Shown here one piece after another: positions 3,746-14,329 of a stretch of DNA of 23,613 nucleotides. Each line of letters opens with the position of its first letter. The first letter of the stretch is position 1. Source of the DNA: a virus; the UHGV virus genome UHGV-0175648. One strand, 5' to 3'. Made by a program: the position numbers and the translations under genes. The notes beneath the pieces were generated by a model. The model saw only the letters and a list, made by a program, of their open reading frames with translations, was not told the origin of the DNA and ran no database searches.

Positions 3746-3945
3746 ACAAAAAGACCTGGTTTCGCGCATATATGTGGGCGCTGGTATGCGTCCTCGTCTC
3801 TCTCATTCTGTATGCAGGACTACTCCCCCGAATGATTTCATCAGACAGCTCCTTCCTGGTATTGCTGGGCATTTTCATTGCCATGCTGTACCCGGCAGGC
3901 GTTGTTCGCCTTTTCAGTAAGTACATCAAGGAAATCAAACAATGA
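3742..3945 (+). CDS. Small inner-membrane protein with two predicted TM helices (67 aa)
   Basis: Two hydrophobic stretches (WALVCVLVSLILYAGLL and FLVLLGIFIAMLYPAGVV). It is translationally coupled to the downstream SPFH gene. Confidence 0.6.
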   Translation: MNKKTWFRAYMWALVCVLVSLILYAGLLPRMISSDSSFLVLLGIFIAMLYPAGVVRLFSKYIKEIKQ

Positions 3946-4772
3946 AGAAATTCAAACTCTTTCAGATTCTCCCGCTTTTTGCCGCCATCCTGCTGGTTGG
4001 CTGCGATCGCGTTGAGCCAGGTAATGTGGGCATCAAAGTCAACAAGCTGGGCGACGACAAAGGCGTTGGCGAAGTGGTTGGCGTTGGCCGCTACTGGACT
4101 GGCTGGAATACCGAGGTTTACATCTTCCCGACCTTCAAACAAATGAAGACCTACGATGACCCGTTCAGCTTCCAGATGAGTGACGGCACAACCATCGGCT
4201 ATCACATCGGCGTGGCCTACAAGGTCGATCCATCCAAAGTTACCACAGTGTTTCAGACCTACCGCAAAGGCGTGGATGACATTACCGACACTGACCTGCG
4301 CCAGAAGATCGCCGACGCACTCAACCGACTGGCCAGCAAAATGACCACAGATAAATTCATCGACGGTGGCAAGTCTGAACTGCTGGATTCAGCACTTAAA
4401 GATATTCAGGAAGAGATGACCCCCATCGGCATTCAGGTCATGAGCCTCTCTTATGTCGGTAAACCGGAATATCCGCCAACCGTTATCGACAGCATTAACG
4501 CCAAAGTCACGGCAAACCAGAAGACCCTGCAACGCGAACAGGAAGTCAAGCAACGCGAAGCAGAAGCCAACATGTTGCGCGCAGAAGCTGCCGGACAGGC
4601 TGATGCCATTCGCACAAAAGCCCAGGCTGAAGCCGACGCCATTCGTTTACGCGGTGAAGCTCTGCGCCAGAATCCCGGCGTTATGGAGCTGGAAGCAATC
4701 AACAAATGGAACGGCACGCTACCGCAATACATGACCAGCAATACCGCTGTTCCGTTTGTTCCGGTGAAGTAA
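3942..4772 (+). CDS. SPFH/band-7 (stomatin/prohibitin/HflK-C-like) lipoprotein, predicted inner-membrane retained
   Basis: Lipoprotein signal with lipobox LLVGC followed by Asp at +2 (CDRVEPG), which is an inner-membrane retention signal in E. coli. An SPFH-like core is followed by an Ala/Glu/Gln/Arg-rich coiled-coil tail (QREQEVKQREAEANMLRAEAAGQADAIRTKAQAEADAIRLRGEALRQ). The ribosome-binding site is AAGGAAA. Confidence 0.8.
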   Translation: MKKFKLFQILPLFAAILLVGCDRVEPGNVGIKVNKLGDDKGVGEVVGVGRYWTGWNTEVYIFPTFKQMKTYDDPFSFQMSDGTTIGYHIGVAYKVDPSKVTTVFQTYRKGVDDITDTDLRQKIADALNRLASKMTTDKFIDGGKSELLDSALKDIQEEMTPIGIQVMSLSYVGKPEYPPTVIDSINAKVTANQKTLQREQEVKQREAEANMLRAEAAGQADAIRTKAQAEADAIRLRGEALRQNPGVMELEAINKWNGTLPQYMTSNTAVPFVPVK

Positions 4773-5814: not shown

Positions 5815-8637
5815 ATGACGGCAGAGTACATCAGGGACTGGCAACAACCGCGCCACGCAGTGGGGCGTGAAGGAACGGGGATCCCCGCTCCTGAATCCGC
5901 GCTTTCCTCCTGGCTGGATGCCTACCGGGCAGAGAACGAGCGCCGCCAGGAAATGGCTGATGCGGCGTTCTCCGCCACGCCGCTGGGCAACCTGATTAAT
6001 AAAAGCCTGGATGCACAGGAAAAACAGGACAAAACCATCACACTGGCAGGAGACGCCAGAAAACAGGCACGCGGCGCGGTGGATGAAGCCATGGCCTCGC
6101 TGCGCCTGCTGCCGTCCTATCTGCGCGATCCGCTTATTCGCCACCTCTCCTTCCTGCGCAAAAAACAGGAAGCCGATCGCCGGAAAGGCAAAAAGAGCTG
6201 GCAGGCTGAACGCTACGCGTGCGGAACCCTGCGCAAAATATTCGAACGTCTGGACCGCACCGACCACCACTGGCTGACACCGGCTTATCGCTCCCTTGCC
6301 GGACGCGAACGCCTGGATGATTTGCTTTACCTGCCGCAGCTCAACAAACACCAGATACAGACGCTGGCCACCATGACAGCGGCGATGTTCAGCAGCACCT
6401 TCGAAAAACTCTGCGATGGCTTTGGCGCGACTGATGGCGAGCTGACCATGGATGTAACGCTGAAGGCGTATCAGATGCTGGCCCGCATGGCGTTACACCT
6501 GCACGCCATGCCTCCGCATTATGACGCACTGACAACAGACAAAGACCGGAGGAACGAACCAGACACAGAACTGCTACCGGGCGCAATCCTTCGCCTGACC
6601 TGTGCGGAATGGTGGAAACGCAAACTGTGGCTGTTACGTTGCGAGTGGAGAGAAGAACAACTCCGCGCCGCCTGTCTGGTTTCCAGAAAAACATCGCCCT
6701 ATCTGAGCCAGGACGCGTTAAGCGAGTTTCGCGCACAGCGCGAGAAAACACGCGATTTCCTGAAAAGTTTCATGCTGGAAAATGAAGACGGGTTCACGAT
6801 TGATCTCGAGACGGTGTATTACGCGGGAGTAAGTAACCCGGTTCACCGTAAGGCAGAAATGATGGCCACCATGAAGGGACTGGAACTTCTGGCCGAAGCC
6901 CGTGGCGACAGAGCGGTGTTTCTGACCGTCACCTGCCCGTCAAAATACCACGCAACAACGGAGAACGGTCATCCGAACCCCAAATGGAACGGGGCCACCA
7001 TGCGCGACTCCAGCGATTACCTGGTTAACACGTTTTTTGCGGCGGTCCGCAAAAAACTGAACCGCGACGGCCTGCGCTGGTATGGCATCCGCACGGTGGA
7101 GCCTCACCATGACGGCACTGTGCACTGGCATATGATGGTCTTTGCACATCCGGACGAGATTGAAACCATCGTGTCCCACGTCTGCGATATTGCCATTCAG
7201 GAGGACCGCCACGAGCTGGGCGATGACATAACTCCGCGTTTTAAGGCGGAGTATGTCGACGGCTCAAAAGGCACACCAACCAGCTACATCGCCACCTACA
7301 TCGGAAAGAACCTGGACAGCCGCGCCGTGGATGGCATCGACCCGAAAACGGGCAAGCCACGCGTTGACCACGAAACCGGAAAATCAATGGCCGAGAGCGT
7401 GGAGCGCGCCATCGGTTGGGCACGCCTTCACCGGGTCCGCCAGTTCCAGTTCTTTGGCATCCCCTCCCGTCAGGTGTGGCGTGAACTCCGCCGCCTTGCC
7501 AGCCAGATGGCGCGCAACCCGGAAGGCCCGCAACGGCTGAAGGATGACGCAATGGATGCGGTACTCGCTGCCGCTGATGCCGGATGTTTTGCCACCTACA
7601 TAGAGAAACAGGGCGGCGTACTTGTTCCACGCAAAGACTACCTGATTCGTACCGCCTACGACCTCGCCGATGAGCTGAACGATTACGGCGAACAGAGCGT
7701 ACAGATTTACGGGATCTGGTCACCACTCATCGGGGAATCCTCCCGTGTGTGCACGCATCCGGATAACTGGAAGCTGGTAAGACGCAAACCGGAAGCGGAA
7801 GACAGCGCCCGCGAAAATGGTTTTGACCTTCAGGGCGGCCCTGCCGCCCCTTGGACTCGTGGCAATAACTGTCCCCGTGTACAGGAAACGAACAACAACG
7901 GGACAGAACAGCCGGAAGAACGGCCAGCACCGTGGCCGCAGCTCCCTGACGGCGTTGAAGTGAATGAATGGATGCGCTCACTGAAACGGCACGAACGCCG
8001 GGCGCTGATGCGTTCGCTGCGTGACAAACAGGCAAAAAACAGCAGTGATGAAATGCAGAGCTGGACACAGAGCCGCAAACAGCAGCGGCCTTTGCCTGAT
8101 AACCACGAATTACTCGCTAAAGAATGGCGGGAGTCTGCTGAATCTCTCGGCCTGCATATCGGTGAACAGCAGATGCAGCACCTGTTACGGGGCGGCAGTC
8201 TGTACGTTGACGGCAGCATCATTGCACCGCAGGGATTTGAAATTGTACGCAAACCGGATACCCGACCGGACAGCCGGATCACGCAGCTCTGGCAGCGCCT
8301 GAGCCGTAACCACGGCGTAAGCAGCACGGAGATCCGCCATAACCCGGTCGCCAGCTATCTGGAACAGCTGGGGGCATCAGACCCCGAAGCCGCCGCACGC
8401 CTGGCATCCACACTTCAGCAGGACCAGAACACCATGAAAACACCCGTTACCGTGCTTTCTGACATGCTGCGCGCCATCCGCGACGCAGAGCACGCACAGA
8501 GAATCAGTGAAACCACTGAACGCGCCCGCCGCAAAGCAGACCTGCTGCGGGGTGGCCTGACCAGTGGAAACAAAAAACAGACAGAAACGGGATTCACAAA
8601 TCCCGTAAATGAGCAAAAAACGCGCCGCGATATATGA
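5815..8637 (+). CDS. A: P2 gpA-family rolling-circle replication initiation endonuclease (940 aa)
   Basis: Contains the HUH-type metal-binding motif (EPHHDGTVHWHMMVF) and a catalytic tyrosine region (SYIATYIGKN) typical of P2/186 A proteins. It lies in the expected position after the early genes. The C-terminal roughly 300 aa is charged, low-complexity sequence. Confidence 0.92.
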   Translation: MTAEYIRDWQQPRHAVGREGTGIPAPESALSSWLDAYRAENERRQEMADAAFSATPLGNLINKSLDAQEKQDKTITLAGDARKQARGAVDEAMASLRLLPSYLRDPLIRHLSFLRKKQEADRRKGKKSWQAERYACGTLRKIFERLDRTDHHWLTPAYRSLAGRERLDDLLYLPQLNKHQIQTLATMTAAMFSSTFEKLCDGFGATDGELTMDVTLKAYQMLARMALHLHAMPPHYDALTTDKDRRNEPDTELLPGAILRLTCAEWWKRKLWLLRCEWREEQLRAACLVSRKTSPYLSQDALSEFRAQREKTRDFLKSFMLENEDGFTIDLETVYYAGVSNPVHRKAEMMATMKGLELLAEARGDRAVFLTVTCPSKYHATTENGHPNPKWNGATMRDSSDYLVNTFFAAVRKKLNRDGLRWYGIRTVEPHHDGTVHWHMMVFAHPDEIETIVSHVCDIAIQEDRHELGDDITPRFKAEYVDGSKGTPTSYIATYIGKNLDSRAVDGIDPKTGKPRVDHETGKSMAESVERAIGWARLHRVRQFQFFGIPSRQVWRELRRLASQMARNPEGPQRLKDDAMDAVLAAADAGCFATYIEKQGGVLVPRKDYLIRTAYDLADELNDYGEQSVQIYGIWSPLIGESSRVCTHPDNWKLVRRKPEAEDSARENGFDLQGGPAAPWTRGNNCPRVQETNNNGTEQPEERPAPWPQLPDGVEVNEWMRSLKRHERRALMRSLRDKQAKNSSDEMQSWTQSRKQQRPLPDNHELLAKEWRESAESLGLHIGEQQMQHLLRGGSLYVDGSIIAPQGFEIVRKPDTRPDSRITQLWQRLSRNHGVSSTEIRHNPVASYLEQLGASDPEAAARLASTLQQDQNTMKTPVTVLSDMLRAIRDAEHAQRISETTERARRKADLLRGGLTSGNKKQTETGFTNPVNEQKTRRDI

Positions 8638-8682
8638 AGCGCGCATAAAACAGGCAAAAACGGGATTTCAGAATCCCGTAAA
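8585..8682. promoter_or_regulatory. parC-like centromere/operator: two 25-bp direct repeats, each internally palindromic
   Basis: AAACGGGATTCACAAATCCCGTAAA at 8585-8609 and AAACGGGATTTCAGAATCCCGTAAA at 8658-8682, each containing ACGGGATT...AATCCCGT dyad symmetry. They sit immediately upstream of parM; the first lies inside the 3' end of gene A. Confidence 0.6.
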
Positions 8683-8713
8683 CGATTAATTAATCAACAT
8701 AAGGAAAAGCGAC

Positions 8714-9673
8714 ATGAAAATTTGTATCGATGACGGCTCCACCAACATCAAGCTGGCATGGACTGAGAACGGCGAACGCCGCAACGCCATCAGCCCGAAC
8801 AGCTTCAAGTCGGAATGGTCTGCGCCGTTCGGTGGCACGCAGCCCGCGAACTACATGCTTGATGGCGTGCGCTATGGTTTTGATCCGGTCAGCGATCGCT
8901 TTGTCCAGACGACCGACACGCAATACCAGTACAGCGATGTGAATGTCATTGCCATTCATCACGCGCTGGTCAAATCAGGCATCACACCACAGGAAGTGGA
9001 TGTGGTTGTCACCCTGCCACTGAGCGAGTATTTCGACACAAACGCACAGCCGGACATGGCCAACATCAACCGCAAAAAAGCAAACGTCATGCGCCCGGTG
9101 GCGTACCAGAACGGAAAAGCATTCACTATCCGTAACGTACGGGTTATGCCTGAATCCATTCCGGCTGGTTTTAAAGCACTGGCTGACATGAGTCCGTTTG
9201 AATCCCTGCTGATTGTGGATTTAGGCGGAACCACGCTGGATGTGGCAAAGGTTCAGGGGCAACTGGCAGGTATCAGCCAGGTGTTTTGCGATCCACACGT
9301 AGGCGTTTCTCTGATGGCCAATGCCGTACTGTCGGTGATGGCCACTAACGGTATGCGCACCAGTCACCACATCGCCAATACCATTATCGAACATCGCCAT
9401 GATGAAGCCTGGCTGCGCCAGCACATCCACAATGACGCGCATTACGCCAGCCTGATGGCGGTTATTCGTGAAAAGGAAGAAACACTGAAACAACGCGTGA
9501 TCCGCGCGCTGGCGGGTTTTTCGGGTTACGGGCGGGTGATGGTTGTCGGTGGCGGGGCGGAGATTGTGGCACCCGCTATCCGCGAAGCCTGCGGAGTTAA
9601 TGCGACTTTCATCGCGGACGGGGTGCCACAGTTTGCTCTGGTTAATGGGCTGTACGCAATGGACAAGGAGTAA
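8714..9673 (+). CDS. parM: ParM/StbA-family actin-like partition ATPase
   Basis: 319 aa with strong similarity along the whole length to plasmid R1 ParM / R100 StbA as I recall it (MKICIDDGSTNIKLAW..., YSDVNVIAIHHAL, VMPESIPAG, LIVDLGGTTLD, GVSLM, VVGGGAE, LVNGLY). The ribosome-binding site is AAGGA. Confidence 0.85.
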   Translation: MKICIDDGSTNIKLAWTENGERRNAISPNSFKSEWSAPFGGTQPANYMLDGVRYGFDPVSDRFVQTTDTQYQYSDVNVIAIHHALVKSGITPQEVDVVVTLPLSEYFDTNAQPDMANINRKKANVMRPVAYQNGKAFTIRNVRVMPESIPAGFKALADMSPFESLLIVDLGGTTLDVAKVQGQLAGISQVFCDPHVGVSLMANAVLSVMATNGMRTSHHIANTIIEHRHDEAWLRQHIHNDAHYASLMAVIREKEETLKQRVIRALAGFSGYGRVMVVGGGAEIVAPAIREACGVNATFIADGVPQFALVNGLYAMDKE

Positions 9674-9677
9674 ACCA

Positions 9678-9989
9678 ATGACGACACCAACCAGACGGAT
9701 AAGTTTCTATCTGAAGCCCGCCGCCGTCAAGAACGAAGGCGAAGCATGCGCCTGGCTGGACAGCCTTACACCAGAAGCCCGCAAAAGCGGCCAACGCGTG
9801 GCTTTTCTGGCCGGGCTGGCACTACTGAAAATGAATCCGGCAGAGGCTTACCGACTGGCTGCATGGGTTGATGATGAGGCGTTATCAGTGACACAAACCA
9901 GAACAGAACGCCCCGCGTCACAGCCAGTATCAGCCGCACAGATAACCAGTCAGATGGCCGGAAATATCCGGGCGTTATTTCCCGAATAA
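9678..9989 (+). CDS. parR: ParR/StbB-like centromere-binding adaptor (103 aa)
   Basis: Immediately downstream of parM with an AAGGAG ribosome-binding site. The N-terminus parallels R1 ParR (RRISFYLKPAAV...WLDSLTPEARKSGQRVAFLAGLAL versus RRTIAFKLNPDV...TLDSIPQGERSRLNRAALTAGLAL, from memory). Confidence 0.72.
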   Translation: MTTPTRRISFYLKPAAVKNEGEACAWLDSLTPEARKSGQRVAFLAGLALLKMNPAEAYRLAAWVDDEALSVTQTRTERPASQPVSAAQITSQMAGNIRALFPE

Positions 9990-9994
9990 CACAA

Positions 9995-10018
9995 CATCAG
10001 GGCGCATCCGCCCTGATG
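9995..10018 (+). terminator. Stem-loop after parR (10-bp stem CATCAGGGCG/CGCCCTGATG, 4-nt loop)
   Basis: Perfect inverted repeat read directly from the sequence. The downstream T-tract is weak, so it may be a partial terminator or an operator. Confidence 0.4.
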
Positions 10019-10052
10019 ACTTTAACCCGGGAGCATAAACAAGGGGGACACA

Positions 10053-10385
10053 ATGGAACACATTGACAGAGAAAAAGCGCAGCGACTGATTGAGCGGATG
10101 GAAGCGCTGGCGAAAGAAGAAAATGTCAACATCCAAAAAATAGCTGAATGTGGCCAGATAGTTCTTCGTCGTGAAAAAGATCTCAAACAACTGATGTCTG
10201 GCGAAACCAGCAAAACATGGACTTCAGGCGAGAAGACGGTTTATTGCAGTTTCTGCAATAAATCCCAGTACGAAGTCACAAAGGTGATTGCCGGACCGTC
10301 TGTTTACATCTGCAATGAGTGCGTGGATTTGTGCAATGAAATTATCAGGAGAGAAGTGACAGACAAAAAGGAAAAAAACGCATGA
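10053..10385 (+). CDS. Small protein with a C-terminal ClpX-type C4 zinc-binding domain (ZBD)
   Basis: Residues about 63-99 ([40 protein letters not shown]) are near-identical to the E. coli ClpX N-terminal zinc-binding domain as I recall it ([40 protein letters not shown]), with the same Cys spacing. The N-terminal 60 aa is unrelated and predicted helical. The ribosome-binding site is AAGGGGGA. Confidence 0.85.
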
Positions 10386-10696
10386 ACAGAAAACAAAAAC
10401 AAGAGTTGAAATACTTTTTACGTAAAGAAATTGCCAGGCTTGAAGATGCAGAATCACAATCATCAGAAATTCCGTTCGGAATGGATATCAACGACGCCCG
10501 TATGCTTCAGGCATACCGCATAGCTCAGGCTGCACTACAGGCAAAACCGTCAGATGGACTGGTTAGAGCAGTACATTTCTATGAACTGGTAAAACGTGAG
10601 AATCCCCCAGCCGAAACCGGAGCATGGAAAGACGCTGTTGACTGGGTGCTCAAAGAGGCTTGCCAGGCTGTAAACATTCGCATTAAAGGAGAGTGA
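10382..10696 (+). CDS. Hypothetical protein (104 aa), second gene of the ZBD operon
   Basis: Translationally coupled to the upstream gene (ATGA). No recognisable domain. Confidence 0.55.
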
Positions 10697-10697
10697 T

Positions 10698-11039
10698 ATG
10701 ACCACTATTACCAGAGAACAGGCACAGAAAATTATTGAAGCAGCCGATGAGGTTATTAGTGCGCTTGCCGGAACTAACGAGGATGTTCACCCTGGTAGCG
10801 ATAACATGCTACGTCTGTGGGATGACCTGAATGACCGTTACGCGCCGCCGGAAGTTGTGCGTGAGCTGGCACGGATTGCGCTGGCATCGCTGGAAGCAGA
10901 GCCAGTAGCATGGATGCATGTAAATAACGGCATCGGAATACCAGCAATAACAAGGAGTAAAGATGTTGCAGAGAGTTGGTTATCAAAAGGCTGGTATGTC
11001 CAACCCTTACATCTAGCCCAGCCTGCATCAAAGCTATAG
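10698..11039 (+). CDS. Hypothetical protein (113 aa), third gene of the ZBD operon
   Basis: Its start lies 1 nt after the upstream stop (TGATATG). It is followed by a terminator hairpin. Confidence 0.55.
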   Translation: MTTITREQAQKIIEAADEVISALAGTNEDVHPGSDNMLRLWDDLNDRYAPPEVVRELARIALASLEAEPVAWMHVNNGIGIPAITRSKDVAESWLSKGWYVQPLHLAQPASKL

Positions 11040-11050
11040 AAATGAGCCAA

Positions 11051-11077
11051 AACGCCCTCTTCCAGGGCGTTTATTTC
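11051..11077 (+). terminator. Rho-independent terminator closing the accessory operon
   Basis: AACGCCCT-CTTCC-AGGGCGTT hairpin followed by TATTTC. Confidence 0.55.
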
Positions 11078-11079
11078 AA

Positions 11080-11109
11080 TGCACAATAGTGCACAAATTT
11101 GCACAATTT
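11080..11109. repeat. Three direct TGCACAA repeats at 10-bp (one helical turn) spacing
   Basis: TGCACAAtagTGCACAAattTGCACAAttt read directly from the sequence. A fourth GTGCACAAAAAAA lies at about 11168. Confidence 0.8.
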
Positions 11110-11459
11110 TTTTGAACGACTTTTTACCCTTCCGGCCCGCATGGCGGCTGGATCCGTCAAGGATCCGTGCGTGCACAAAAAAACGCGCTTTTTCTGCGCG
11201 CAGGTGACGGGGGAACAGCCCGCGTTTCAGGGGGTAAATAGCATTCCCTGAACGATGTCGCAGAGACACAACAGAATGGCTGTATTTCTCACGCTGAGCG
11301 TGAAAAATACGTGAGGGATTCTGATTTGATGGGGTGAAAGGTAAGGCCGTCAAAATCGCACTGAGGCGGCGAAGAACATGCAGTCAACGCGGTGGGATTG
11401 CGTAAGAGTCTGACCGCCGATGATGGCAATAAGCAGAAAAGCGTCGTGAAATTATCTGA

Positions 11460-11500
11460 TTGATACAGGAGCTGGAGAGCCGGGGCATAAATTTTTTATG
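11460..11500. other. Candidate cos (cohesive end) region with a 13-bp-arm perfect palindrome
   Basis: Position is inferred: in P2 the Q stop lies a few tens of bp from the left cohesive end. GGAGAGCCGGGGCATAAAT (11464-11482) partially resembles the P2 cos 19-mer as I recall it (GGCGAGGCGGGGAAAGCAC). A perfect palindrome GCCGGGGCATAAA...TTTATGCCCCGGC spans 11469-11497. The exact cut sites were not determined. Confidence 0.35.
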
Positions 11501-11531
11501 CCCCGGCGAAGCAGCAGACAAGCGAAGCGCG

Positions 11532-12578
11532 TCAGGATGTGGGCTGGGTATCTAACAGTGCGTAAGGGTTAAAGCGGATCACCTCTTCGCCAAGCCAGTC
11601 ATTGATGTGCTTCATGGCCTCCATGACGGGCATCAGCTCGTTAATTGCGTAAACCCGCGCGGCCTTCTCCACATCACCAAACGCACTTTTTTCACCCGGC
11701 ATCGCCCCCATCAGTTGCGGCGGAACGCGGTGCGCAGCCAGCACATCATCACGGGATGCCGCCTTAACATTCATGAACTCATCCTTTGCGGTGATCTGCT
11801 GGAACGGCAAAATTTGCACCCCCTCTTTGCCCCCGTTGGGCGCATGAATGAGCACGTTTTTAAACGCACCGCCACCACGTGCACCCTGTAGCGTTTCTTT
11901 CAGGGAGTCCATGCTTTCGCGGTTTACCTGCGCTGCACCGATGTAGATGATGCACCCGGCGTGGGATCCGTTGTCGTAATACAGTTTTCTGAACATGTCC
12001 GCCGAATGAGACAGGCTGGCCGAGAGTAATGCGCCGAGATATTCCGGCATGCCGTAGATTTCCTGGTTAATGTCAGGATTCATCAGGTGGCACACTTTGC
12101 CAGGGCGAAACTGGAACGCATCCTTGCCATCCTGCACATACCACCATGATTCAAGATCGCTACCGCGTCGCATGTATTTTGCCAGGGCGTGCCGTAATTT
12201 AAGCGGTTCGCCGAGCATATTGCTTCGAAGCTCAAGGAATGCGTTACCGAACACAAACCAGTCCAGCGCCAGCGCCGAGAAATCCTGCCGGGAAAGCAGC
12301 GGGTGCGGGATGTAGCAACCGAGTAATACATTGCGCTTAAAGTAAAGCGCAGACTGATGCCAGGACGTTTGTCGGGCAGCTCTTGCCAGACCGTACCAGT
12401 CCACCGGGGTTTCATACCACCGCCCGTTATCAGCACAGTACATATTGTCCAGCAGGTCATGCCCGGTCAGGCGATAAGGACCATCAAATGTGAATGCACT
12501 GAGCGACGATTCTTTCCTGAGCGCATCAGCGAGATCAATGCGTGAACCCATGCGCACTTTTTTATTTTTTCTGCTCAT
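11532..12578 (-). CDS. Q: Portal (capsid portal vertex) protein
   Basis: 348 aa; the size, position and sequence are consistent with P2 gpQ. It is adjacent to and co-oriented with terminase large subunit P. Confidence 0.9.
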   Translation of the reverse strand: MSRKNKKVRMGSRIDLADALRKESSLSAFTFDGPYRLTGHDLLDNMYCADNGRWYETPVDWYGLARAARQTSWHQSALYFKRNVLLGCYIPHPLLSRQDFSALALDWFVFGNAFLELRSNMLGEPLKLRHALAKYMRRGSDLESWWYVQDGKDAFQFRPGKVCHLMNPDINQEIYGMPEYLGALLSASLSHSADMFRKLYYDNGSHAGCIIYIGAAQVNRESMDSLKETLQGARGGGAFKNVLIHAPNGGKEGVQILPFQQITAKDEFMNVKAASRDDVLAAHRVPPQLMGAMPGEKSAFGDVEKAARVYAINELMPVMEAMKHINDWLGEEVIRFNPYALLDTQPTS

Positions 12579-14329
12579 CAGAACTCCATAACCGTGAAAC
12601 GCTCGTTTTCTCCTTCGCCGCCAATCGGTTCGTTAATGACAGCAAGCATGGTCGCCCACGCAAGGTCGCCGTGGCTGATCCCCCTCGCGCGGTCCGTTTC
12701 GTAAGTGATAAAGCCGCCCGGTGTTTTCACCTTACGCACGGCGTTAAAGGCCGCGACCAGTTCGCGTTCGGCGCGATCGTATTCCCACCGCCCGGCACGC
12801 ATTATTTGCAGCATTTTCAGTACCAGCGACCGTTTTGATGACAGCGTGAAGGTGTACGGAATAGCAGCAGGGAAAAACCGTTTCACTATCTGATAAACAG
12901 CCTCCCCGTTCCCGCCCGTCACATCAATGCCGATGTGTTCCACGTTGTAGCGACACGTGAACTCTTCAATGACTCTGGCCTGTTCTTCAAACTCCAGCCC
13001 CTGAACGCGTCGCGTCTCCACCGTTCGAAAACGGCCACCAGGAACAGCCGGAGGAACCACCACGGACACAGCGCCGCTGTCGCCGTTGCCACTGCTGCCG
13101 TTTGCGTCATACCCAATCCATACCGGACGATTCCCCATCGGGCGGGGAGCAAAAGGTTTCCAGTCTTTCCAGTCGTCGTATCCGTCAACACCGCAGCCAA
13201 TCAGGATATTCAGGTTAAATGCCGATTCCCCTTCGCGGACAAACTCACACATATAGAGATTGAGGAACTCGTCTTCGGTGTTTTCATCACGAATTTCGTC
13301 GATATCGGTGTGTTTCCAGCCGTGTTTAACCACATCTTCCAGCGTGACAATTTGCCGCCACGTCCGGTCAGGGCAGATAAGCCCGTTATGCAGCGTTTTC
13401 CAGTCCACAGAAAAACGCTGGCGTTTATGCGAGGCCTTTTTCTCGTTCCAGCGGTCGCCGTTCCAGTAGGCGTATGCCTCGTGCGTTTCGGTGGATGGCG
13501 TGGAGAAGTAGGTGCGCCGCAGTCCGCTGAGGGTTGCCATAGCGCCAGCCACCTTGCGCAGTTCAGCAAAGCGACTGACCCAGAAGAATTCATCAAAATA
13601 AAAATTGCCCGTATAGGACTGTGCCGACGCAGCAGAAGTGCCGAGAAAATGCAGCTCTGCGCCGTTGGAGAGGATGATTTTATCGCCCCCTTTCAGCTCC
13701 ACATCAACTTCAGCCGCGGCCTTCTGAATAATGCTTTTAAACTGGAACGCCTGACGACGCGACGCAGACAAAAAAATCTGGTTACGCTGATAAGGTTGCA
13801 CCACATCGTCACGCAGCGCCATCAGCAGTGCTTCCTGTGCAAAATACCAGGTCGCCCCAATCTGTCGGGATTTCAGGATCATCCTGTTACGTATCCCGGC
13901 TTCCCTGCAAAGGGTCAGGGAGTCAAACCAGCCCCGCTGATGCCACTCCAGCCTGCTGATGATTTTTTCCCGCAGTGCGGCAATCTGTTCCGGCGTGAAA
14001 TGATTTTTGAGTTTTTTCGCCCGGCCTTTCTTTCCTGCGGCCATCACATCCGGCTGGCCATCATGCAGCTTTTTAAGCTGCCGTGTCAGCAGGTCTATTT
14101 CCTTGAAGTCACCGCCTGTTTTATTCTGTTTTTCAGTAAGCTGGATGAGGCGCGCATCAATGGATTGCGTGACACGCTGCACGGGTGGCGTTTCATCCCA
14201 CTGGTCGCGTTTTTTCCACGCATAAATCGTGTTCGGGTTTATTCCCATCAGACGTGATATTTCTGCGGGCGGATAACCCTGCCAGTAAAGTTGTCGCGCA
14301 CGCTGGCGCACAAAAGCGTCCTGAATCAT
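12578..14329 (-). CDS. P: Terminase large (ATPase) subunit
   Basis: 583 aa; the N-terminus (MIQDAFVRQRARQLYWQGYPPAEISRLMGINPNTIYAWKKRDQWDE) and size are typical of P2 gpP. It is divergent from O, as in P2. Confidence 0.92.
   Translation of the reverse strand: MIQDAFVRQRARQLYWQGYPPAEISRLMGINPNTIYAWKKRDQWDETPPVQRVTQSIDARLIQLTEKQNKTGGDFKEIDLLTRQLKKLHDGQPDVMAAGKKGRAKKLKNHFTPEQIAALREKIISRLEWHQRGWFDSLTLCREAGIRNRMILKSRQIGATWYFAQEALLMALRDDVVQPYQRNQIFLSASRRQAFQFKSIIQKAAAEVDVELKGGDKIILSNGAELHFLGTSAASAQSYTGNFYFDEFFWVSRFAELRKVAGAMATLSGLRRTYFSTPSTETHEAYAYWNGDRWNEKKASHKRQRFSVDWKTLHNGLICPDRTWRQIVTLEDVVKHGWKHTDIDEIRDENTEDEFLNLYMCEFVREGESAFNLNILIGCGVDGYDDWKDWKPFAPRPMGNRPVWIGYDANGSSGNGDSGAVSVVVPPAVPGGRFRTVETRRVQGLEFEEQARVIEEFTCRYNVEHIGIDVTGGNGEAVYQIVKRFFPAAIPYTFTLSSKRSLVLKMLQIMRAGRWEYDRAERELVAAFNAVRKVKTPGGFITYETDRARGISHGDLAWATMLAVINEPIGGEGENERFTVMEF

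Follow-up and report, generated by a model that had tools for sequence, protein, structure and literature searches.

The A-to-Q interval and its nested modules

The 23,613-nucleotide virus genome UHGV-0175648 (the whole stretch analysed here, referred to as the window) is a P2-family prophage in prophage gene order, with the integrase at its left end, and we describe the accessory genes that lie in it between the replication endonuclease gene A and the portal gene Q. From the stop codon of A (8637) to the gap preceding Q, this slot is occupied by five co-directional (+) open reading frames (ORFs): parM (8714–9673), parR (9678–9989), the gene of a stand-alone ClpX zinc-binding-domain (ZBD) protein (10053–10385) and two small genes, designated genes 5 (10382–10696) and 6 (10698–11039). 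An initial annotation had listed the same content, namely parMR, a ClpX-ZBD gene and two unknowns, and ORF and family matches confirmed it. It had also seen no resemblance to tin or old of P2, and none was found when P2 Tin, Old and Orf91 were compared by tblastn with the whole window (best E = 2.1, a chance match outside the slot). The left flank, gene A, encodes 940 amino acids (5815–8637, + strand; Pfam Phage_GPA, 1.7e-129), and the right flank, gene Q, is read from the opposite strand (11532–12578, −; Pfam Phage_portal, 4.4e-18; phrog_68, 4.6e-153).

We are highly confident that the slot consists of two independently exchangeable parts, a parMR module at approximately 8536–10015 and a hypervariable sub-slot at 10016–11079, filled here by a rightward (+) three-gene cassette of 1.06 kb led by the ZBD gene. 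The parMR module (+) comprises an alternative tail of A, two palindromes, parM, parR and a 3' hairpin, and is swapped as a unit. Phages with other cargo are ~95–97% identical to the window up to position 10015, and the identity resumes at approximately 11080. In TUM2820 and 2014C-4587, which are 97% identical to the window in A, Q and the terminase gene P and are devoid of parMR, the identity ends at approximately 8525–8536, within the last ~35 codons of A. These codons (8536–8637), which contain the first palindrome, are replaced together with parMR. As the tail is exchanged with the module, the A protein has alternative C-termini depending on the cargo. The initial annotation had treated the five genes as one cargo; in fact, ParMR is a semi-conserved module of P88/Xuanwuvirus phages and only 10016–11079 is hypervariable.

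In related prophages, conserved flanks (A, Q and P, ~97% identical) enclose at least six different contents, so the same five genes do not form an invariant core of the junction. The arrangement A–parMR–(variable)–Q was found at ~97% identity in P88, PhiR44_2, Shae_phiSM, Chuche, 520873 and ST131 prophages. The module is followed by the ZBD cassette in this window, P88, UTI89, CREC-591 and PhiR44_2, and elsewhere on the same backbone by IetAS (PADLOC IetA, 3.6e-89; IetS, 6.6e-41); further contents found with parMR are a DUF4760 pair, memP, the candidate defence protein PDC-M04A and a near-empty sub-slot. Loci without parMR hold either IetAS or a PD-Lambda-5-like methylase with an AAA ATPase. 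Among 5,426 complete Escherichia coli genomes, parMR was detected in 1,307, at 1,453 chromosomal and 2 plasmid places, the ZBD gene together with gene 5 in 72, and the full three-gene cassette in 33. A scan of genome contigs with ParM returned three loci only, from E. albertii, Salmonella and a 'Vagococcus sp.' contig (NZ_JBQPOM010000071.1). The ParM of the latter is 97% identical to that of the window, and the contig is probably enterobacterial contamination of the assembly.

The location agrees with the P2-family A-to-Q/cos variable locus, as initially annotated, and we identify the interval with high confidence as the published gpA-gpQ accessory hotspot of a P88-like phage. Rousset et al. 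(2022, Cell Host Microbe; PMC9122126) described gpA-gpQ as a P2 hotspot with 1,650 arrangements in 18,150 E. coli loci and 169 curated systems, and validated several systems from it. Their Table S5A already lists the arrangement 'StbA + Plasmid_stab_B + zf-C4_ClpX + hypothetical x3'. In the portion of their Table S5B considered here, system #1 is Plasmid_stab_B with StbA (4,592 of 18,150 loci), and its ParM has almost the same sequence as the ParM of the window. The central point of the annotation was correct, yet already published and too coarse, and the term 'non-canonical' for the cargo was misleading, as ParMR occupies this hotspot more often than any other system in E. coli.

The region 8400–11600 shares 97.4% DNA identity with Escherichia phage P88 (NC_026014) across 90% of its length and also matches many P88-like phages and prophages. 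The A protein is only 31% identical to A of P2 and ~180 residues longer, which makes the phage a distant relative of P2 and not P2 itself. We assign it with high confidence to the P88-like (Xuanwuvirus, Peduoviridae) integrative prophages.

At the right border of the sub-slot, where the DNA identity of sister phages resumes, the motif TGCACAA occurs three times at 10-bp spacing (11080–11106). Most P88-like loci, with or without parMR, have kept the triplet irrespective of their cargo; it may be a border element for protein binding or recombination, or a part of cos recognition. It is followed by a conserved non-coding flank (11107–11531), presumed to bear cos. The slot had been annotated as adjoining the cohesive end, which stands as far as the Q flank is concerned; cos itself is only presumed, the best match to the P2 cos core in a similarity search being an 11-mer with one mismatch (11363–11373). 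A perfect 13-bp inverted repeat (11479–11507) occupies the position of the P2 tQ terminator. Elsewhere in the window, the integrase gene (1–1023, −), assigned by ORF and family matches, is separated from A by genes for a helix-turn-helix repressor, Cox and early proteins, including an Ash-like protein; between cox and A, the early operon also encodes an SPFH/Band-7 protein (3942–4772, +; Pfam, 7.5e-31). To the right of Q lie terminase P (12578–14329, −) and then the capsid and tail genes.

The parMR module and its proposed action on circular phage DNA

The parM gene encodes an actin-like segregation ATPase of 319 amino acids (StbA_N, 6.9e-82; ParM C-terminal domain, 2.5e-68), which aligns over its full length with the structures of ParM from plasmid R1 (E = 1.1e-92). 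The adjacent parR encodes an adaptor/DNA-binding protein of 103 amino acids (Plasmid_stab_B, 1.7e-24; phrog_2515, 8.4e-58), for which no match at E ≤ 1 was found among the sequences of solved structures. Two allele classes of ParR were apparent: approximately 740 genomes match the whole parMR query and approximately 560 match it only to about codon 18 of parR. The ParR of the window and the family representative of Rousset et al., as given in the portion of their data considered here, have the N-terminal 18 residues and the C-terminal LFPE in common. Avoidance of incompatibility in lysogens was considered as a reason for the allele divergence and rejected, as one chromosome holds two prophages with the same allele.

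Upstream of parM, a 42-nt direct repeat (8571–8612 and 8644–8685, 73 bp apart) delimits a candidate parC/operator at 8571–8685. Each copy holds a 20-bp palindrome, ACGGGATT-N4-AATCCCGT (8587–8606 and 8660–8679), which has two matches against 0.14 expected; none of 100 shuffles reached two. The parMR-bearing loci that we examined have both palindromes, exactly or with 1–3 base changes; two loci of the same backbone without parMR have neither. As they exceed chance expectation and are inherited with parMR, we assign them to the module as a candidate ParR operator/centromere, judging from sequence. The right end of the module is marked by a hairpin with a 10-bp stem in the 63-bp gap between parR and the ZBD gene (9995–10018; −22.9 kcal/mol, z = −4.65), with a T-rich tail on the − strand and no U-run on the + strand.

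Type II ParMRC systems are expected on low-copy autonomous replicons, and this is not the setting observed here: 1,453 of the 1,455 places of parMR in complete E. coli genomes are chromosomal. The chromosome of E. coli O145 RM8843-C1 (NZ_CP035772.1) carries two P88-like prophages with the same parMR allele (1229049–1230324 and 3012491–3016377). Two such prophages would be incompatible if partition were needed for their inheritance. The integrated state of the lysogens, the presence of an integrase and the co-residence of same-allele prophages together indicate that partition is not what keeps the lysogen, and ParMR is probably not involved in maintaining the integrated prophage.

On the other hand, one record deposited as a plasmid (NZ_CP148288.1) is a 34,461-bp circle with a complete P88-like genome, including int, parMR and all structural genes. 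The circle represents either a prophage that is truly episomal or a replicative form produced by excision, and its closure at 34,461 bp implies that an episomal form can be abundant. Rousset et al. suggested that ParMR lets these phages persist as low-copy plasmids, in which case the cassette could support an episomal lifestyle. Such a role would suit the bona fide R1-type ParM, the circular record with int and parMR, and the occurrence of homologues of the ZBD protein in D6-like phage-plasmids. It is at odds with the almost exclusively chromosomal location of parMR, with the integrase and with the same-allele prophages residing in one chromosome, and the single circular record may represent an excised replicative form. 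Furthermore, the A protein of P2 is a rolling-circle initiator, not a plasmid replicon. We therefore regard persistence as a low-copy plasmid as quite unlikely.

The reading we prefer is that ParMR acts on excised or newly injected circular phage DNA, where it would position or segregate replicating copies or stabilise a transient episome. With moderate confidence, ParMR and the palindromes would thus represent a functional ParMRC acting on extrachromosomal phage DNA, and an integrative rolling-circle phage may have recruited this system to handle its replicating DNA.

The zinc-binding-domain cassette

The lead gene of the cassette encodes a protein of 110 amino acids (zf-C4_ClpX, 5.8e-18; phmmer, 8.7e-20 to 1OVX). 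Its AlphaFold2 model (predicted local distance difference test, pLDDT, 81.4) consists of a helical hairpin (residues 6–48), a flexible disordered linker and a zinc ribbon with a helix, the ZBD comprising residues 63–109. The modelled ZBD superposes on that of E. coli ClpX (2DS5) with a root-mean-square deviation of 0.7 Å and 78% identity; in the core, 30 of 37 residues are identical to E. coli ClpX, including all four cysteines, F16 and I46. There is no AAA+ module: the protein matches only positions 3–54 of the ClpX models, with 50 bits against cut-offs of ~360–370. The gene in P88 (3154–3486) is named 'carboxylate--amine ligase' in NC_026014 and 'carboxylate-amine ligase' in KP063541, a misannotation copied to many protein records.

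Full-length relatives form a narrow family, confined to E. coli, E. albertii, Salmonella and D6-like phage-plasmids. From E. coli to Salmonella and D6 they are 43–95% identical over the full length, and the zinc ligands are invariant. In divergent members, the N-terminal domains are only 25–40% identical, and the ZBDs keep 26–33 of 37 residues identical to ClpX. Pseudomonas phage PP9W2 has a 65-residue ZBD-only gene (2495–2692) in a nin-like region just after the replication genes. PP9W2 is an unrelated temperate phage, which suggests that phages captured the ClpX zinc finger repeatedly.

The F16/I46 hydrophobic patch of ClpX overlaps the lambda O site and lies in the region bound by SspB and RssB (PMC7804408). 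The ZBD protein may accordingly be a mimic, or decoy, of the ClpX N-domain, which would bind docking adaptors or substrates (SspB, RssB, lambda-O-type or MuA-type), compete for the ligands of the N-domain and so shift what ClpXP degrades. Its possible purposes, among which we make no choice, include the protection of a phage protein, an increase in sigma-S and the exclusion of ClpX-dependent phages, such as Mu. A literature search revealed no published description of a phage-borne ZBD decoy, and the papers searched contained neither support for the idea nor contradiction of it. That the lead gene encodes such a decoy, expressed alongside the early genes and not as a defence active in the lysogen, is our tentative proposal, to which we give somewhat less than an even chance.

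The remaining two genes appear to be built of shuffled small helical modules and encode putative proteins. Gene 5 (104 amino acids; phrog_26213, phrog_660) consists of an N-module, a linker motif and a near-invariant C-module of 47 residues; its relatives have an N-module, the IALASLEAEPVAW linker, a middle module and the same C-module, and gene 5 is devoid of the middle module present in all longer relatives. The C-module is nearly invariant across hundreds of proteins and also occurs in the Ea22-like protein P0296. Gene 6 (113 amino acids; phrog_60, phrog_660, phrog_3323) has the commonest N-module (residues 1–72), after which comes a short tail of 41 residues; it includes a middle module and has no C-module. 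Its N-module is 86–100% identical to the N-termini of DUF551/Eaa proteins, in alignments that cover 63–70% of the query and have prophage proteins of 150–190 residues as partners; a lambdoid protein of 170 residues joins the N-module of gene 6 to the C-module of gene 5. The exact 113-residue protein is rare, with a cluster of 11 sequences. Neither gene product has a Pfam match at E ≤ 0.1 other than two weak ones at chance level. The model of the gene 5 product is all-helical (pLDDT 71.6), and Foldseek found no significant match to it in the PDB. Among small proteins, the model was most like the phage anti-activator Aqs1 (E = 2.3), a resemblance that we did not use. We likewise drew no conclusion on a lytic role from the occurrence of the gene 5 domain in virulent phages, as the best match, in EC.W1-9, proved to be another Ea22-type array in a phage with eae/ea22-annotated genes. 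The coding sequences of the ZBD protein (10053–10094) and gene 6 (10698–10739) start with the same 14-residue motif, M..I.RE.AQ..IE (8 of 14 residues identical, 72% DNA identity), which, by its sequence, seems to be a common module start, as is typical of such arrays.

Each of the three cassette ORFs is intact and has a ribosome-binding site. Gene 5 overlaps the ZBD gene by ATGA, and genes 5 and 6 are separated by a single nucleotide. Downstream of gene 6, a hairpin that resembles a terminator and has a U-run on the + strand (11049–11077; −14.8 kcal/mol, z = −3.5) ends the rightward unit. The initial annotation had divided the slot into two operons; a crude consensus promoter scan found no sigma-70-like site in the gap between parR and the ZBD gene, where the strong hairpin described above has no U-run on the + strand. 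Given no promoter-like site and no U-run terminator on the 5' side, coupled genes and a 3' terminator, it is no less likely that the cassette shares a transcript with parMR or the early genes than that it forms a second operon, and it would then be transcribed by read-through from parMR or an early transcript.

The cassette has a G+C content of 0.436–0.494, compared with 0.55–0.59 in A, and its segments share 88–97% DNA identity with lambdoid prophages. Full-length homologues of the ZBD protein in D6 and PhiR41_1 are encoded inside Ea22/EaA/eae arrays, directly after an Ea22-like gene; these gene names derive from the early 'ea' region of lambdoid phages. The cassette may have been assembled from a pool of modules common to the Ea22/Eaa-type arrays of lambdoid phages and D6-like phage-plasmids. 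In lambda and P22, Ea22/EaA and nin-type regions are early lytic operons.

The initial annotation proposed the slot genes as candidates for defence, counter-defence or maintenance. This stands for ParMR, a system of the maintenance/segregation type, and for the ZBD cassette nothing beyond its location supports a defence role. None of the five slot proteins had a PADLOC v2 match below E = 0.001, the sole weak one being a partial match of gene 5 to PDC-M28C (E = 0.008, 13 bits). One could nevertheless imagine that the cassette is expressed from the prophage as an anti-phage defence or exclusion system, with free ZBD, for example, blocking the disassembly of a Mu-type transpososome. MuA recognition depends on the ClpX N-domain (cited in PMC5415555), the same sub-slot in sister phages holds IetAS or PDC-M04A, the wider slot holds the PD-Lambda-5-like pair, and several systems of the hotspot were validated by Rousset et al. 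(PMC9122126). This scenario is unlikely in our view, given that the cassette has no PADLOC match, no predicted promoter of its own and the direction of the early genes, unlike old/tin of P2 with their own leftward promoter. Moreover, homologues occur in Ea22/EaA arrays and, in PP9W2, beside nin-type genes, in kinds of region that are early lytic operons in lambda and P22, and genes 5 and 6 are shuffled fragments.

The shuffled build also raises the question of whether the three genes are functionless recombination debris, hitch-hiking in a recombination-prone slot. Gene 5 without a middle module, gene 6 ending at a module boundary without a C-module, the 11-sequence cluster of the exact 113-residue protein and the presence of the full cassette in only 33 of 5,426 genomes would be in line with this. 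We consider it very unlikely, since none of the three ORFs is disrupted and each has a ribosome-binding site, members of the ZBD family are conserved from end to end (43–95% identity) with invariant zinc ligands, and the C-module of gene 5 is nearly invariant across hundreds of proteins.

Taken together, a published hotspot, a ParMRC-like module working on circular phage DNA and a read-through cassette with a decoy of the ClpX N-domain form the explanation that we favour by a small degree over its being wrong. Several points weigh against it. R1 parC has ten iterons, many more than the two palindromes here, which may be an operator only. The promoter scan was crude and also found no promoter for parMR. 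The zinc ribbon may serve merely as a dimerisation domain, and its high identity to ClpX may reflect recent capture and not selection for mimicry. Genes 5 and 6 seem to be truncated in part and may be debris, and the location in a hotspot where sister phages have IetAS and other defence genes speaks for a role in defence.

Significance and comparison with known systems

Earlier publications had already described the hotspot, how common ParMR is in it and the present arrangement of genes, and P88 itself is in GenBank. What we add is the separation of the ParMR module from a distinct sub-slot, with sharp, reusable borders at approximately 8536, 10015 and 11080, the last marked by the triple TGCACAA, which will aid the mining of cargo in P88-type prophages. 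Two questions follow: what is the role of a plasmid-type segregation machine on an integrated phage in about one quarter of complete E. coli genomes, and does a free copy of the ClpX zinc finger act as a protease decoy? If so, the decoy might, while the phage develops or in the lysogen, make a phage protein more stable, increase sigma-S or hinder rival phages that depend on ClpX. As stand-alone ZBD genes are also present in temperate phages unrelated to this one (D6-like phage-plasmids, PP9W2), such decoys could be a general phage strategy. That the ZBD protein represents a host-protease modulator class for which we found no published description, reprogramming ClpXP by titration of N-domain ligands, is a possibility that we hold to be doubtful.

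The interval shares its position (replication endonuclease to portal, by cos) and variable content with the hotspot of Rousset et al., from which it differs in that the slot is split here into two nested modules, for each of which we define the breakpoints. These authors do not name the ZBD cassette among the systems that they report testing, and the N-terminus of the ZBD protein had no match in the portion of their Table S5B examined. P88 has A, parM, parR, the ZBD gene and a homologue of gene 5 in the same order as the window; it differs in the absence of gene 6, in place of which it has two tiny ORFs.

The module resembles ParMRC of R1 in its R1-type ParM, the small adaptor gene 3' of parM and the repeats 5' of parM. 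It differs in that the replicon is an integrative phage, the palindromes are two and not ten iterons, and ParR has no relative among the sequences of solved structures. A functional precedent for our reading of ParMR is AlpC/AlpA of the Corynebacterium prophage CGP3, likewise an actin-like protein with a DNA-binding adaptor in an integrated prophage, which was reported to support the transport and replication of viral DNA (PMC4446434, PMC5539076). CGP3 is unrelated to P2-like phages.

The ZBD protein agrees with the E. coli ClpX ZBD (1OVX, 2DS5–2DS8) in the four cysteine ligands, the F16/I46 patch and the fold; having no AAA+ module, it is not a ClpX, and it has an additional N-terminal helical hairpin of 50 residues. 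The cassette as a whole resembles the 'ea' genes of lambdoid phages and P22 (ead/Ea22-like, Eaa, DUF551), with short, translationally coupled ORFs and exchangeable N-, middle and C-modules that meet at conserved IALASLEAEPVAW-type linkers. None of its three proteins reaches Pfam Ead_Ea22 (PF13935) or DUF551 (PF04448), and, in contrast to the lambdoid genes, this three-gene mini-array resides in a P2-family hotspot and not in a lambdoid early-left operon. Finally, old and tin of P2 have a promoter beside cos that serves them alone and directs leftward transcription, whereas the cassette of the window shares the orientation of the early genes and has no predicted promoter of its own.

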